Positions 1 to 6,000 of a stretch of 17,614 nt of DNA are shown here, in pieces. Made by a program: the position numbers. The DNA is from a virus (lineage: Duplodnaviria > Heunggongvirae > Uroviricota > Caudoviricetes). Location: positions 1-17,614 of IMG/VR virus record IMGVR_UViG_2558860274_000012. One strand, given 5' to 3'. Position 1 is the stretch's first letter. The number at the start of each line of letters is the position of its first letter.

Positions 1-3000
1 TAACTATTTGATAATTAATAAATTAATTTTGCACCACCTCGTTTTGGGGCATGGTTGGGGCAAACTCGCTTAGCTGTGTATTTAACAGGGCTACCTGTGC
101 ATTATTGTTTTCAGACATCCATTTCCCGTATACCTGAAACACCATTTGCGCATCTGCATGTCCCATCTGGTTTGCAATGAATGCCGGGTTGGCACCGGCT
201 GTCAGCGACCAGCAGGCATAAGTATGTCTCGATTGATATGATTTGCGGTGGCGGAGGCCAGCGCGCTTTATCGCTGCGTCCCACATCTGCCTTATTGAGT
301 CAACGGTAAAATGGTCACCATAATTTTTTACTCTCGCTGACACTTCAGGTTGAAAAACAAAGGTGCATTTTTGTTTTTCTGTTCTGCCGAACTCTCTGAG
401 GTGAACGTCAATAATATGTTCTTTGCTCAGCCTCGTTAGTGTCATCTGACTCCTGAGAGCGTCGATTGCAGGCTTGATAAGGTGAATTACCCGATTGGTA
501 CCAGCCTGTGTTTTCGGTACCGTAAAACGATCTTTTGCTAAATTTCTCCTGATCATCATTGTTCCATTTTTCAGATCTATGTCCTCCCACCCAAGCGCAC
601 ACAGTTCACCAGGGCGAATGCCTGTATAAACAGAAACACACCATAAATTTTTGGCCTGCTGATTTCTGCAGGCGTCGATAAGACGGATAAATTCCTCCCG
701 TGAAAGAGGATCAGGAATGGTTCTTGATTCCTTTAATGGCGAGATCCCCTTAAACGGATTATCTGCCAGGTAACCGTTATCAACACCAAACTGGAACACG
801 GCGTAAAGATTTGTCATGTAATTATTTACGGTGACAGCCGATCTCCCCGGTTGTGTAACAATATAATTACTTTTTGGGATCTGGTATCCAGTAAGTAACT
901 CTTTACGTACCGCCAGCAATTTTTCTTTATTAATCGACGATGCAAGATTTTTTTCACCGATTATGCTCAGAATATTTTTGATGACGGCACGGTACGTGTT
1001 GAGTGACGTTTTTGCGACTTCCGTTTCTTTCAGTGCCAGAAATTTTTCAGCCAGTTCCTTTATGGTTAAATCTTGTCGGGCCTCACCAAATTTTTCCAGA
1101 TTGTGTGAGGAGGGAAAATGTTTTGCATAGTCGAAAACGCCGGTTTTTATTGCATAACAAACAGAGGCGCGCAGCTCACCTGCAATGCGCCTGTTTTTTG
1201 TCGTGTCAGGAACCCCCAGATTTTCCCTGACTCTTACACCTTTATAAACAAACCAGATACGTAATTTCCCTCCATGGTTTTCCACGCCTGTCGGATATTT
1301 CATTTTAGCTTCTCTCATTGGTTAGTATTGTTTTTAGTCAAGTAAGATGACGTCTTGGTCTTGCTGATGCCTGACGTTCAATCCAGCGATCAATTTCTTC
1401 CAGGTTGTAAAAGCATGGGCTGTTATCCCATGGCATACCGTCATGGGCTACATGCTTATATTCCCTTCCTTCCATAAACGATTTTTCCCTGGCTTTTTTT
1501 AGCGTTCCTTTTTTTATTCCTTTCAGCGCAATTAGCTGTTCTTCGGATACCCATTTACCGGGAGAGACAATCATGATTACTTCGCTCATCGCTTTTATCT
1601 CTTACTTCAGATGAGCGCCGGTTGCAGAATACCAGTCACAACCGGCGATGGTTGAACATTAAAAATCAGCCTGACTCGGGATCAGTTTTTGTATCGTAGC
1701 TGTAACGTATTTTGCCTGGTGACGGGCATCATCCAGCGCATTGTGGCGCACGCCTTCAAATGGAATAACTGTTCTGGCATCAAAGTCGATTGTTTTTCCC
1801 AGCTCAACGATTGTGCGTACATCGCGATCGTTGTAGTAGCGCCACGGGCAGGGGATGTCCAGACGTTCGTATGAGGTGCGCAAAATTGCGTTATCGAAAG
1901 TTGCACCATTACCCCATACCTGAACGAATTTTTCATCTGAGTATTCGTTGATGAACTCCCGAAACCGCGAAAGGGCATCCTTCAGTTTTACCTGGTCTGT
2001 TAAAATGGCAGCTCTGGCTTCACTGGACTGCTTCAGCCACCATTCGATGGTTCCACCGTTAGGAACAGCCCCTGTATTCATTGCGTCAGTCAGACTGATA
2101 GCGATATAAAATACTGGCCCGATTTCCCCTGTTTGTGGGTCGAAGAAAACCGCACCAATAACCACGATGGGCGCATTGGTGTTGGTTCCCATTGTTTCAA
2201 GGTCGATCATCAGGTGATACCACACTCTGCTGGTGGATGTGATAACGTGATGACCGTTCACCGCAATTAAGGGATCTGCCGTCTCGCCAGTTTCATTATC
2301 GCTGGCGTGGTCCTGAGCGCTGCCAGCATTCTCCTTGTGTGGATGTTCAGCGTCTTCCATTTCCTCCGGATCATTTTCCTGAACTTCAACCTGATTCTCT
2401 TCATCGAATGTTTCCTGGTATGTTGCGTCGCCCATCACCGCGCCACAATCAGGGCAGTTGCCGCCACCGCTCTGACCGCAGGCGGTGCAGACTTTTTCCG
2501 GCTCCTGTTGCGCTACTGGTTCAACCTGTTTCGTTTCTGGCTCGTTTTGTTGCGCATTTGGGCTGTTTTGTTCCGTTTTCTGGTCGTTCTGTTCCGATTC
2601 TTGCTGGTTCTGGTTTGCAGAGTCGCGGGTTTCAATCCCCTTCACCCATTTCGGATCATTCGGGTCGCTAATCCCTGCAACAAATTCTCCGCGAGAGGCA
2701 GCAAGCAACTTATCGGCGTCAGGCTGGCTGATATTGGCTGCCTGCATAATTTTGTTTACTTCTTCAGCGGTAACTTTTACCGGCTCTGGTTGTGCGGTCG
2801 TGTCAGATGCACCAGTATTTTGTTGTGAACCTGAGTATGTACCGTTTTTGCGGGCAAAATATTCTTCTTTCGTGATTTCAGTAGCCCCTGCAGTCAGCGC
2901 CTTATTCAGACCAGAAAGTTTGTTTGCGCGACCGTATTTTTCGCCATCCTTGTCGGTGAAGAGGAAGTAGAACGGCCCCTCACGCTCTACAGATGGTTCG

Positions 3001-6000
3001 ATTTCCACTTTGCATTCGGTTTTTTCGTTGTCCGGAATTGCCGTTTCCACTGCATCAGTTTCTGGTACTGGCGACGAGAGAGTATCAGTTGTGCTCTGAT
3101 TTGTTCCTTCATCTTCAAACACGCCCTTTGTAGTCAGGTATTCAGTAATGTATTTGTTCAGTGCCACAGGGTCTTTGTGAATGTCGATCGGACGTTCACG
3201 GACAAGGCCAAAAATAGTCTGGCGGTCGTAGCGAAGGGCATCAGGCTGTTTGCGCATTGATGCCGAGATACGCTTCCAGTCTTCGCGGTCGTTGTCGATA
3301 ACTTCTTTTTTTGCCCAGCGATGGATGCTGCCGTCAATGTTTCCGGCATCCACATCACCAGGCCAGAGAGCGTAGGCCAGTTCGTCATCCAGTGTTTTCC
3401 ATGTCTGCTTGTATTCGCGATGAATGGCAGCAATGACCGGGCTGATTTTTTCTGTTGAATTTTCAGTGTACTGTTGATTGGCTCTGGCGCGGGCGAGATC
3501 AACAACAGACGTGTATTTTCCGGTTTCCTTGCGTTCACCTTCGCGACGTTTTTTCCAGATGCGCATCTCTGCCTGAATTTCGGGCCATTTAGCACCAGGA
3601 ATACATTTATGCTTAACCCACCCAATGGCGTGCAACTTAAGCTCCGGATAACATTGGCCCCGGTAAGTGTTTCCCGTCGACGTTTTATAAGCGGCTGAAT
3701 GCCGGTGATCGTAAGGGCGCATGCGAGGCGATTCGCTGGTGGATAAAAGATGGTGGGCGCGATTGCCGCATACGTTCAAATAACTGCTATGGACAGGTTA
3801 TTCGTCGTGACCAGGAAAGCGCATTAGCCTGTTGGGGGATAGATCAGTGAGCAGAGTCGCCGCGATTATTTATGCTCTGGTTATTTGCATGATCGTCTGC
3901 CTGTCGTGGGCGGTCAATCATTACCGTGATAACGCCATCGCCTACAAAGAACAGCGTGATAAAAAAGTCAGTGAGCTGAAGCAGGCGATCGCCACCATCA
4001 CTGACATGCAGCAGCGTCAGCGTGATGTTGCTGCGCTCGATGCAAAGTACTCGAGAGAATTAGCCAATGCGAAAGCTGAAAATGAAACTCTGCGCGCTGA
4101 TGTTGCCGCTGGTCGTCGTCGGTTGCACATCAAAGCAGTCTGTCAGTCAGTGCGTGAAGCCACCACCGCCTCCGGCGTGGATAATGCAACCAGCCCCCGA
4201 CTGGCAGACACCGCTGAACGGGATTATTTCACCCTCAGAGAGCGACTGATAATAATGCAAAAACAACTTGAAGGGGCACAGCTATACATTCGAGAGCAAT
4301 GCCTCAGATAAAAACCGGCCAAGGATAATCCGCTGAAGATTCGCCGGGGCTAGAGAGAGCCAAAGCTTTAATTGACACCATTACTCATAGCAAGGCAATG
4401 TATCGTTTTTATGAGGTCAATAGATGCCTGATTTATTTCTGTGCTCCGTATCGTCGCTGTATTCCTTCGTTAACCATGAGTGTAGTCCGACGGGGAGCAC
4501 GAGTGTATGGGAATAATAAAAAACGATACACACCTGGGTTTACCGCTTTTATGCTTCGCGGGTTTGCTCTTCATGCAGCTAGTCCGGTACAGAGGTGTAT
4601 GAAACCGGACTGCTGATTTAATTAATTCCTATATTAATGGTCTGTTATTTTCAACATCTTCCATGTACAAAAGATCGTGATCAAACGAATAGTAAAACCG
4701 TATGTTTTTATCTATATCTGTAATCCAGCGATAAACACCTGCTTTTGCTAAAGTGAGACGATATTGATGAAATGTAGATTTACCTGATATAAGATTTCTG
4801 GCTGCTTCTTTAATTAACTCTGGTTTTTTTGATGTGCTAACTTTCACAAGTCCTCTACTGCCTCGAACTAATAAAATATTATCATCATGAGTAATTAGTC
4901 TTATATTATCAGTAGCCAGATAATAAATATAATGCGCAATATTATGGCGTTTTAATTCGGAGTAAAACCATGGGAAGTATAAATTACTTCTAACGTGTTC
5001 GAATATCTCTTGAAAAATATCTGCCTGCTCCATCAGGAAATATCCTCTTGTCACTGCTACTTCTTACCATGAGCTTAGATAGTTTGCATGATTTGTTCTC
5101 TCACATCAATCTGATCCGACCTCATTGAGGTGGGCGTTGTGAATACCTGATAAGAAATGTGGGTCCTCCCAATGGGGGAGGCTGGCACGGGGCGGGAGCG
5201 TCGCGGAAAAAGGCTAGTTTTTGCATTTTTATCGGCCATCATCATCTTTACATCTTATTGATTATTAATGGTTATTTGTTTTTTGTATGTCGAATTGAGT
5301 GTTTTTTGTTCGACATCGAACGCGTTTTCTTAAAGTTGTTCGCACGATGCATGTTTAAAGCTCTCCGGAGGAAATATGGATCATGAGTTGAAAAAACTGG
5401 TGCTGAATATTAATCAACTGGCGGCTTTATCTGGTCTGCACCGCCAGACTGTCGTGGCAAGACTGAAAAACATTCGTCCCGCTGGTGGACATGACAAACT
5501 CAAGCTATACCGGTTGACCGATATTCTGACTGAATTTATGGGGTTACCACCGCCGGTTGCTGAGGGCGAAATGGATCCACATGAACGCAAAGCCTGGTAT
5601 CAGTCTGAACGTGAGCGTCTTAAGTTCGAACAGGAAACGGCACAACTCATTCCGGCCAGTGATGTCAGACGGGAGTTTGCCATCTGGGCAAAAGCGGTCG
5701 TGCAGGTGCTGGAGACATTACCGGATATTCTGGAACGTGACTGTGGTCTGCAGCCTGCCGCTGTGAGCCGTGTTCAGTCCATTATTGATGATCTGCGCGA
5801 TCAGATAGCCCTGCGGGTGACCGAAGCAGGTGCGGATGATGAGGAGGAATTACAGCAGGAGGAGTAATGCTGAATCAGGAAACCGCAAAGGCAGCACGAA
5901 CCGATTCAGGTTATATCCTTCGCGCACCGAGACGAATGCGGGTTGCTGATGCCGTTGCTCAGTATATGCGGGTGCCCATGGGGGCAGGGAACTCAGTCCC

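Follow-up and report, generated by a model that had tools for sequence, protein, structure and literature searches.

A minus-strand open reading frame (ORF) lying directly upstream of the excisionase and integrase genes of an Escherichia albertii prophage had been predicted to encode an unusual, multi-part recombination exonuclease. This raises the question of whether the ORF is a complete and novel exonuclease gene, or a member of a known family that has been altered in this prophage. We therefore analyzed the whole stretch of DNA containing it (17,614 nt; here referred to as the window), which derives from a decayed prophage with type III effector genes.

Truncation of the gene and the deletion junction

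The original prediction placed the gene at 1659-3640. The minus-strand ORF indeed ends at 1659, but position 3640 is neither a codon boundary nor a native start. Only the stretch from codon 44 of the mechanically called ORF onward (window 3650..1662, minus strand) is homologous to intact copies, codon 44 at position 3650 being equivalent to residue 164 of 826. In intact lambdoid prophages of the Qin/mEp460 type the "exonuclease" has 826 aa; residues 164-826 of an intact E. coli allele are 99.4% identical to this stretch, and the mEp460 protein is 88% identical. The copy in the window is thus 5′-truncated. The mechanical extension of the ORF (3651-3779, minus strand) is antisense to a remnant of the lysozyme gene R and is not exonuclease sequence.

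When the window was aligned at the DNA level with both an intact exonuclease gene and the R-Rz region of a phage, the deletion junction fell at an 'ATA' microhomology, with the exonuclease gene on its left and the tail of gene R on its right (Table 1); the megablast break points concur. An illegitimate deletion took the first 163 codons and all sequence as far as the 3′ part of gene R. The lost span is seen in intact prophages to contain dicB, ydfD, a repressor gene and replication genes; from lambdoid gene order, Q, the holin gene and the PL promoter would be expected in it as well. The upstream neighbors dicB and ydfD are replaced in the window by R′-Rz. Because the deletion removed the 5′ codons together with the early region, we regard the gene as a decapitated relic.

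Table 1. Positions of the exonuclease gene, its predicted modules and the neighboring genes within the window.
Feature	Position	Strand	Remarks
Tyrosine integrase gene	23..1318	-	Pfam Arm-DNA-bind_2 and Phage_integrase
Excisionase gene	1338..1589	-	Pfam DUF1233 (putative excisionase), E 1.6e-31; directly downstream of the exonuclease gene
YdfE/PHROG-2082-family "exonuclease" gene, retained 3′ part	1659..3650	-	codons 164-826 and stop; 5′-truncated
Predicted DEDDh (DnaQ-like, Rv2179c/DexA-type) 3′-5′ exonuclease domain	1698..2216	-	PF16473, 8KEL, catalytic alignment
Catalytic codons	D526 2204-2202, E528 2198-2196, D629 1895-1893, H679 1745-1743, D684 1730-1728	-	
RecE-shared segment, DKLLAASRGEF to ADP(L/V)I	2265..2714	-	ca. 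80% identity to Rac RecE 453-591 (BLASTP)
Acidic linker	2271..2426	-	D+E-rich; aligned to RecE 534-591; outside the modelled stretch
Four-Cys zinc ribbon, CxxC-x7-CxxC	2445..2489	-	CTACGQSGGGNCPDC; read from sequence; common to K-12 RecE
Q/N/E-rich low-complexity tract	2493..2615	-	imperfect heptads
Small beta-hairpin + helix unit	2841..2987	-	EREGPFYFLF...GRANKL...EITKEEY; AlphaFold2 pLDDT 72-83
Helical domain of the RecE-like platform	3111..3428	-	ORF residues 118-223; precomputed Pfam PF27432
Deletion junction	3648..3650	.	'ATA' microhomology
Lysozyme gene R, 3′ remnant	3651..3850	+	93% identity to the R/Rz region of phage vB_EcoS-611R1
Rz spanin gene	3832..4311	+	Pfam Phage_lysis, E 2.8e-49; far side of the deletion
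Rz1	4067-4249		nested in Rz; Rz1 Pfam match in sister locus L173

It could be argued that E. albertii still makes a product from the truncated allele by means of an internal start, namely an exonuclease composed of the helical and DEDDh domains and useful to the host. NCBI annotates it as a protein and not as a pseudogene, using the nearest in-frame starts to 3640, TTG 3635 (658 aa, P0001) or ATG 3566 (635 aa, P0010). The retained frame of 663 codons contains no frameshifts or stops, the catalytic residues match those of the intact allele, and the last 481 codons are identical to one intact E. coli allele. The same allele, with the same neighbors, is present in a second E. albertii assembly, i.e. 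in at least two. A recent deletion, however, predicts equal identity to intact alleles; given the intact frame and the 481-codon identity, a recent decapitation and a truncated product still in use look alike. Against expression stand (i) the removal of the N-terminal module along with the native start and early promoter, (ii) promoter-like sites upstream of the relic that are not above chance (3 sites versus 3.1 ± 1.6 in shuffled sequences) and (iii) the heavy decay of the surrounding prophage, where structural genes are truncated and IS elements have inserted. We consider continued expression unlikely; lacking its native start and promoter, the copy in the window is most likely not functional.

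Contrary to the original supposition, the gene family is not unusual. It corresponds to PHROG 2082, comprises more than 8000 clusters at 90% identity (mostly from E. coli), and already has entries in PHROG, NCBI and Pfam. It represents a very common and catalogued prophage gene, and its features are real but ordinary; the gene in the window is neither complete nor a novel exonuclease.

A DEDDh nuclease domain on a RecE-like platform

The sole catalytic domain of this multi-part protein is the C-terminal one, a predicted 3′-5′ exonuclease of the DEDDh type. ORF residues 522-694 match Pfam PF16473 (Rv2179c-like; E 1.1e-67) over 174 of 177 profile positions, with further matches to Pfam RNase_T (E 5e-5) and, in the PDB, to T4 DexA (8KEL; E 6e-9). 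The C-terminal DEDDh motifs noted originally were confirmed when the sequence was formally aligned with those of T4 DexA, E. coli DnaQ and RNase T: the five catalytic columns (D526, E528, D629, H679 and D684) are invariant. The polarity of the domain and its DNA or RNA substrate are predicted from homology. In the intact family, dN/dS of this domain is 0.18-0.20, and the family is under purifying selection.

The approximately 300 aa located upstream, previously considered unassigned, match the RecE family and PHROG 2082. The NCBIfam RecE model NF007259 was matched with an E value of 2.7e-82, over model positions 271-603 only, and the score of 277 is far under the RecE cut-off (1269). BLASTP aligned the intact protein with residues 278-591 of K-12 RecE (E 1e-64). 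This match stops at 'ADP(L/V)I', just ahead of the crystallised nuclease domain. The original prediction had named a RecE-like N-terminal region as an observation that would refute it; such a match was found, extending over the zinc ribbon and the low-complexity tract as well as the upstream region.

The helical domain is modelled with confidence (AlphaFold2 pLDDT 84-93) and is kept across proteins with differing C-terminal modules; a search for its structural neighbors returned none. The small beta-hairpin unit contains two motifs, GPFY and GRANK, that do not vary across the alignments. The Q/N/E-rich tract had been correctly ascribed to simple-sequence DNA at about 2500-2620: underlying it at 2535-2609 is an imperfect repeat of 21-bp (heptad) units (3.5 copies, 71% matches; Tandem Repeats Finder), and the K-12 RecE version is shorter. 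The predicted zinc ribbon is also present, although its inner spacing is x7 and not x10; it is confined to Escherichia-type linkers and matches Pfam DZR at an E value of only 0.11. The acidic linker, likewise foreseen, is presumed from its composition to be disordered.

Within the segment shared with RecE, dS is 0.16-0.18, compared with ca. 1 or more in the flanking modules, and this segment is likely to be a recombination joint for module exchange. Natural recombinants are found among the relatives: K-12 RecE is composed of PF06630 and PF12684, whereas some relatives combine PF06630 with PF16473, and one of them (P0124) consists of RecE residues 1-~470, almost verbatim, followed by the DEDDh domain. 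The intact protein is a mosaic that reflects a nuclease-module swap, in which DEDDh takes the place of PD-(D/E)XK on a RecE-like platform. The swap is common across Enterobacterales.

Annealase genes and the role of the intact protein

The expectation of a multi-part protein in the slot of a recombination exonuclease was borne out, since the gene occupies the recE position of Rac, just upstream of xis-int. It might accordingly be proposed that the protein is complete and serves as the recombination exonuclease of the phage, a counterpart of lambda Exo or RecE with 3′-5′ polarity. The platform and linker shared with RecE agree with this proposal, as does the intron-homing role of T4 DexA, a homolog of the nuclease domain, reported in PMC12153337.

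The genes surrounding the DEDDh form argue otherwise. A census based on tblastn (RecT, Bet, Erf and one Rad52-like query) and on Pfam searches of ORFs of ≥100-140 aa, and blind to small or unrecognised annealases, revealed RecT, Bet or Erf in none of 80 IMG/VR loci of the DEDDh form; recT was found in all 80 control recE loci, which are nearly clonal copies of Rac. Pfam scans of the ORFs flanking the DEDDh form identified only repressors and similar proteins, and no annealase. Nor was an annealase found beside any of 23 intact fused forms (641-851 aa), drawn from about ten enterobacterial genera with one genome sampled per species, or anywhere in the complete genome of phage HannyBb. Moreover, a 3′-5′ enzyme would destroy the 3′ tails used by annealases, and the copy in the window lacks 163 N-terminal codons. 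Since no annealase gene was found with the DEDDh form in the loci covered by this census, it is most likely not a recombinase of the RecET/Red type and would not fill the role of recombination exonuclease in the classical sense. We consider that proposal very improbable.

In intact phages, the protein would be produced from the early-left operon, like dicB and ydfD. A linker of ca. 130 residues, probably flexible, would tether its DEDDh head, which may remove nucleotides at 3′ termini; like that of DexA, its substrate is most likely DNA. The protein would act without a phage annealase, and hence as an annealase-independent end-processing or degradative nuclease. A literature search revealed no paper on this DEDDh-form enzyme class, which the original prediction had considered worth characterising. 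Taken together, it is highly probable that the gene in the window is the decapitated relic of a prophage gene combining a RecE-like platform with DEDDh, whose intact product is an annealase-independent nuclease.

Comparison with known nucleases and prophage genes

T4 DexA (exonuclease A; PDB 8KEL/8KEN) belongs to the same DEDDh fold family (ca. 29% identity), but is a standalone protein of 227 aa with extra loops. Its residues D7, E9, D119, H186 and D191 correspond here to D526, E528, D629, H679 and D684 (E9 is our own reading of the alignment, the others are as published). A standalone DexA homolog encoded by E. coli, the DEDDh exonuclease EcD ('HREX'), has been reported to protect against T4; its cloning primers encode a protein starting with MIDTET... 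and ending with ...TIPETYD (PMC12153337). By analogy, the prophage protein could be an anti-phage nuclease degrading the hydroxymethylcytosine DNA of superinfecting T-even phages. However, EcD is a separate protein from the one studied here. DexA residues W152 and D169, proposed for 5hmC recognition, are replaced in the alignment by Y and K, respectively, and the tetramer residue D90, lost in EcD, is retained here (this stretch of the alignment is uncertain). The gene is situated in the repressed early-left operon and not in a moron position expressed in the lysogen, and the sole PADLOC match was to a generic DEDDh entry (E 2e-5). We find this reading very improbable.

The best Pfam family match of the DEDDh domain is to the family founded by Rv2179c of Mycobacterium tuberculosis, which Pfam labels an exoribonuclease. 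Rv2179c itself, a bacterial exoribonuclease, is a standalone protein of ca. 170 aa, whereas in the phage protein the domain is C-terminal on a platform of ca. 620 aa. An action on RNA 3′ ends, e.g. of early-left or int/xis transcripts, would suit the names of both the Pfam domain and many family members ('3′-5′ exoribonuclease' at NCBI), and also the gene's position directly upstream of xis-int (19 of 21 fused loci, from other species, and 18 of 47 standalone loci). In contrast, the only solved-structure homolog found by sequence is DexA, a DNA exonuclease; the platform is shared with the DNA exonuclease RecE, and possibly also with a Rad52-like domain; and no RNA-binding domain was detected by Pfam search. 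An RNA substrate thus seems quite unlikely.

Among prophage genes, the exonucleases of PHROG 2082 and of phages mEp460 and HannyBb are of the same family and have the same downstream xis-int, and the exonuclease-excisionase synteny of the window is common to intact prophages. The pseudogene ydfE of the Qin prophage of E. coli K-12 (b1577) is another fragment of the same gene: interrupted by IS2, it retains the N-terminal part only, whereas in the window the C-terminal four-fifths alone survive. RecE (exodeoxyribonuclease VIII) of Rac is also comparable, and its gene lies in the same slot, late in the early-left operon. K-12 recE has recT alongside, unlike the DEDDh form. The N-terminal module of RecE is PF06630, and that of this allele is of the YdfE type (precomputed PF27430); the function of the RecE N-terminal region is itself unknown (review PMC11611040). 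The RecE nuclease is a PD-(D/E)XK 5′-3′ enzyme (PF12684), in contrast to the predicted 3′-5′ DEDDh enzyme (PF16473) described here. Between these ends, the middle platform (residues 262-477 of the intact protein) shows weak homology to RecE 278-452, while the heptad tract, zinc ribbon and acidic linker (RecE 453-591) are approximately 80% identical in the two proteins.

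A truncated copy of a prophage exonuclease gene

A mechanical ORF call placed the start of the exonuclease gene within DNA of lysozyme gene R (features of the window are listed in the table below). The PHROG 2082 profile ('exonuclease', 823 positions) aligns to this ORF only from profile position 163 onwards (163-823; 1356 bits), and the retained part is 99.4% identical over 663 aa to WP_338903365. Family residues 1-163 are deleted, and the similarity does not run end to end along the approx. 823-826-aa family protein. The original prediction took no account of a truncation, which is shown by the starting point of the profile match and by the deletion junction mapped next to it. 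Judged by its sequence, what the window carries is only part of a gene of the YdfE/PHROG 2082 family.

In a megablast search against complete Escherichia coli genomes and phages, all matches to the exonuclease gene end at approx. position 3658, and the window from approx. 3648 onward matches the lysozyme (R) and Rz genes of lambdoid phages. A three-way DNA alignment defined the junction as the trinucleotide ATA, common to both parents. Since the adjoining DNA carries the 3′-terminal part of R in plus-strand orientation, the first 43 codons of the ORF are antisense R. The deletion took out the whole span from the exonuclease gene to this remnant of R. The corresponding span in intact prophages carries dicB, ydfD, the repressor and replication genes; by lambdoid gene order, it would also have held the early-left promoter, Q and the holin gene. 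As a result, the upstream dicB and ydfD were exchanged for R′-Rz, and the downstream xis-int pair was kept. A consensus scan upstream of the relic revealed promoter-like sites no more numerous than in shuffled sequence.

Products annotated by NCBI in Escherichia albertii are 658 aa (TTG at 3635) and 635 aa (ATG at 3566) long, and one E. albertii product, from strain KF1, is 100% identical to that of the window. The allele recurs, flanked by the same genes, in a second E. albertii assembly, where it lies next to rspB and rspA, i.e. in the attachment region also used by an intact prophage that we examined. The ydfE gene of E. coli K-12 (b1577), an IS2-interrupted pseudogene of the Qin prophage, is an N-terminal fragment of the same gene. 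Comparison with L001, the closest intact E. coli allele, placed all 10 nucleotide differences within the first 182 retained codons (3105-3650), beside the deletion junction; no difference occurs in the other 481 codons.

Features of the decayed prophage, with their positions in the window
Feature	Position	Strand	Remarks
Exonuclease ORF (mechanical call)	3779 to 1659	minus	706 codons, TTG start
Low-dS linker/zinc-ribbon segment	2265-2714		
Q/N/E-rich tract	2493-2615		imperfect 21-bp repeat
Deletion junction	3648-3650		ATA
3′ end of gene R	3651 to about 3850	plus	
DUF1398 gene	4629-5054		
Structural gene remnants	5376-9000		fragmentary
NleG effector gene	9169-9759		low-GC block (33-38% GC)
Second effector gene	9809-12181		low-GC block (33-38% GC)
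NleC-type gene, two parts	12435-12902 and 14119-14757		Peptidase_M85
Two ORFs between the NleC parts	12827-14100	minus	IS3-family by look of translations
DinI-like gene	15129-15476		
IS66-like element	15620-17614		537-aa transposase

The DEDDh head and the RecE-like platform

The C-terminal 173 residues of the ORF product match PF16473, the Rv2179c-like 3′-5′ exoribonuclease domain (E 1.1e-67; 227.6 bits against a gathering score of 27), and the match to the Pfam RNase_T family is marginal (24.3 bits against a threshold of 24). Among solved structures, sequence comparison found only 8KEL and 8KEN (E 6e-9) of a 227-aa exodeoxyribonuclease, identified as DexA of phage T4 from the T4 genome record and PMC12153337. 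When the ORF protein was aligned by MAFFT to DexA, RNase T and residues 1-191 of E. coli DnaQ, no variation was seen in the five catalytic columns, D526, E528, D629, H679 and D684 of the ORF corresponding to D12, E14, D103, H162 and D167 of DnaQ. These residues constitute (i) the D-x-E motif of Exo I (MIDLETMG), (ii) the Exo II aspartate (GATFDNAIL; D119 in DexA) and (iii) the H-x4-D motif of Exo III (HNALDDA; H186 and D191 in DexA), which is typical of the 'h' subtype. The DEDDh assignment is therefore sound, and the predicted kinship with the DnaQ family was borne out by formal alignment.

The region preceding this head had been described as unassigned, but a domain search revealed that it is RecE-like. 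In the NCBIfam RecE equivalog model (NF007259), the match (E 2.7e-82) extends over positions 271-603 of 877 only and covers ORF residues 126-506; the score of 277.2 bits falls far short of the equivalog cut-off of 1269. In BLASTP, residues 262-625 of the intact protein align to residues 278-591 of K-12 RecE (E 1e-64). The identity rises to approx. 80% over RecE 453-591, a segment including DKLLAASRGEF, the heptad tract, the zinc ribbon and the acidic linker, and the homology stops at ADP(L/V)I. We refer to the non-catalytic part as the platform.

The acidic Q/E/N tract and the zinc ribbon, both noticed in the original prediction, are indeed present; the spacing of the ribbon is CxxC-x7-CxxC (CTACGQSGGGNCPDC), not x10, and the acidic stretch comes next. 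The ribbon and the Q/N tract are confined to linkers of the Escherichia type. In the fused homologues of Kluyvera, Citrobacter, Kosakonia and others (loci L178-L252), the place of the ribbon is taken by (A/G)N(M/L)GNG(V/I)FSI(D/E)GLM, followed by DVQMEE within an otherwise variable acidic linker. The conserved GNGVFSIDGLM-type/DVQMEE motif may be a docking site for some partner.

A search of 1.84 billion representative proteins revealed that platform and head modules combine freely. We found (i) PF06630 (Exonuc_VIII, the RecE N-terminus) joined to PF16473, e.g. in P0124, (ii) the YdfE-type platform joined to PF16473, (iii) the YdfE-type platform joined to PDDEXK (P0167 and P0152) and (iv) the platform with other C-termini. 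P0124 is an 805-aa protein of the E. coli type, which over its first approx. 470 residues is nearly identical to K-12 RecE and then continues with the shared linker and a DEDDh domain; it is apparently a recent recE/DEDDh recombinant. Comparison with phage mEp460, which has an intact family gene, gave a dS of 0.03 in the platform and 0.96 in the DEDDh domain. The linker/zinc-ribbon segment has a dS of only 0.16-0.18 in comparisons with alleles L002 and L009, although their DEDDh domains or platforms reach approx. 1 or more, which supports exchange at the linker. This patch looks like a crossover site between recE-type and DEDDh-type genes. A 5.8-billion-protein search for a more diverse platform alignment returned mostly E. 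coli fragments, which limited model quality.

Two of the retrieved proteins (P0202 and P0156) and the product of one fetched locus (L257, 8001-10367), named 'exonuclease' in PHROG, carry, fused to the YdfE-type platform, a C-terminal domain that contains Rad52-like motifs (INAEY..ATEIFGPIG..WG and KKSLTDALKKALSLLGF). Their match to Pfam Rad52_Rad22 (E 0.004) is below threshold. Should this domain be real, an annealase domain would ride on the same platform.

Neighbouring genes and the rest of the prophage

The order of genes in intact prophages is repressor, small genes, dicB, ydfD, exonuclease, xis and int; that of Rac is kilR, ydaE, racC, recE, recT, ralR, rcbA, xisR and intR. Annealase genes were surveyed in two sets of 80 IMG/VR loci each, one with the DEDDh form and the other with the RecE nuclease. 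No homologs of RecT, lambda Bet, P22 Erf, lambda Exo or Gam were detected by tblastn in any of the 80 DEDDh loci. By the same method, recT was present in all 80 RecE-nuclease loci, which constitute a weak control because they are nearly clonal Rac. No annealase family occurred among the Pfam matches (best 25 of 65 families) of 121 clustered ORFs flanking the DEDDh genes and of the ten largest same-strand ORFs; the families present among these best 25 were repressors, Rha, integrases and the like.

A second sample of 80 further loci, from a one-genome-per-species collection, includes 23 intact fused forms (641-851 aa) from Escherichia, Kluyvera, Citrobacter, Dryocola, Pluralibacter, Kosakonia, Phytobacter, Atlantibacter and Enterobacter. 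RecT, Bet or Erf was found near none of the 23. Among the 40 ORFs of at least 140 aa that lie upstream on the same strand, matches were confined to 11 Pfam families, almost all helix-turn-helix/repressor and none of them an annealase. The complete genome of the isolated phage HannyBb, which carries an intact family gene, contains no homologs of the recombination-protein queries. The start of an integrase ORF lies no more than 1.5 kb downstream in 19 of 21 fused loci and in 18 of 47 loci with a standalone DEDDh gene.

In many prophages (18/47), the same position immediately upstream of xis-int is filled by such a standalone gene, encoding approx. 180-240 aa; examples are L217 (2071-3440), L177, L182, L183, L186 and L229. 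In one Citrobacter locus, a standalone gene lies just downstream of an erf-like gene. Directly downstream of PD-(D/E)XK-type platform relatives, loci L255 (10841-11905) and L256 (10876-11997) contain an ORF of 355-374 aa with no PDB match and a weak similarity to lambda Bet (E 0.003), whose product is probably a divergent annealase.

The decayed prophage carries genes for effectors. One gene encodes an NleG effector (E 4e-36), and the neighbouring one a 790-aa protein with pentapeptide repeats and SopA-like central and catalytic (HECT-like E3 ligase) domains. A gene for a type III effector of the NleC type, an NF-κB p65-degrading zinc protease, is split, with profile positions 1-104 in one ORF and 102-251 in the other; by the look of the translations, an IS3-family insertion sequence lies between the halves. 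The putative IS66-family element, recognized in the same way, has a TnpB-like ORF at the window end. The structural genes comprise a terminase small-subunit-like DUF1441 gene, remnants of tail genes L, K and I, and a 323-aa ORF with the appearance of a truncated large terminase. Their fragmentary state implies several further deletions besides the one that beheaded the exonuclease gene.

Predicted function and comparison with DexA and RecE

The architecture, which had been considered unusual, is common and already catalogued in PHROG 2082, in NCBI protein names and in Pfam (PF27430, PF27432 and PF16473). Among the precomputed Pfam identifiers on the family, PF27430 denotes the N-terminal module and PF27432 the platform. 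The details of the original prediction thus largely stood; its framing did not as regards completeness, the identity of the upstream region and rarity. The window gene, a prophage gene known from the databases, is broken and adds nothing new to the biology of the family; its annotation as a complete 'exonuclease' or 'exodeoxyribonuclease VIII' is misleading. The family is of greater interest than this copy: it is one of the large genes most often found in lambdoid prophages of E. coli, and it is under purifying selection, as indicated for the DEDDh domain of intact members by a dN/dS of 0.18-0.20. Literature searches on ydfE, Rv2179c and the Pfam families retrieved no experimental paper or biochemistry on YdfE/PHROG 2082.

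Intact family members combine a DEDDh head bearing the five catalytic residues, a low-complexity acidic tether and a RecE-type platform, and they occupy an early-left operon position with no annealase partner. From these sequence features, the protein is predicted to be a metal-dependent 3′-5′ exonuclease acting on 3′ ends. Since both DexA and RecE act on DNA, this is a more likely substrate than RNA. The enzyme would act during lytic growth, independently of single-strand annealing; its role could be end processing, degradation of host or competitor DNA, or counter-defence.

A role in defence, such as that of EcD/HREX, a standalone DexA-like, 5hmC-DNA-specific defence exonuclease of E. coli, fits poorly. 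The family gene sits in a repressed operon. The residues proposed for 5hmC recognition in PMC12153337 are not kept, W152 and D169 of DexA being replaced by Y and K in the ORF protein, as far as the uncertain alignment of this loop allows. The tetramer residue D90 of DexA is lost in EcD (A78) but retained as D in the ORF protein. EcD itself is a different protein: the cloning primers given in that paper encode a standalone protein with different termini, and EcD was not among the sequences retrieved for the family. PADLOC defence models gave nothing beyond a generic CRISPR-associated DEDDh match (E 2e-5).

A further comparison is with RecE of the Rac prophage. K-12 RecE consists of a PF06630 N-terminus and PF12684 (PDDEXK, 615-850), whereas at the position of PF12684 the window and intact 826-aa proteins have PF16473. 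The intact 826-aa allele lacks PF06630, and the window copy has lost the corresponding part; sister DEDDh proteins, e.g. P0124 and L009, do contain PF06630. RecE is adjoined by recT, and the exonuclease gene of the window is followed by xis with no recT in between. It is conceivable, if on balance doubtful, that the RecE-type platform is an exchangeable targeting module, which lambdoid phages join to alternative heads via a recombination joint in the linker/zinc ribbon. The heads observed are a 5′-3′ PD-(D/E)XK nuclease (with recT in Rac loci), a 3′-5′ DEDDh nuclease (in no case with an annealase) and, perhaps, an annealase domain resembling Rad52. If so, the DEDDh version would provide an annealase-independent end-processing or counter-defence activity to a large share of E. 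coli lambdoid prophages, and the N-terminal 600 residues of RecE would have a function independent of the attached nuclease. According to PMC11611040, this region is known only for enhancing linear-linear recombineering. The exchange of the RecE nuclease for one of opposite polarity, with the annealase lost as well, constitutes a natural experiment on the role of the RecE N-terminal region.
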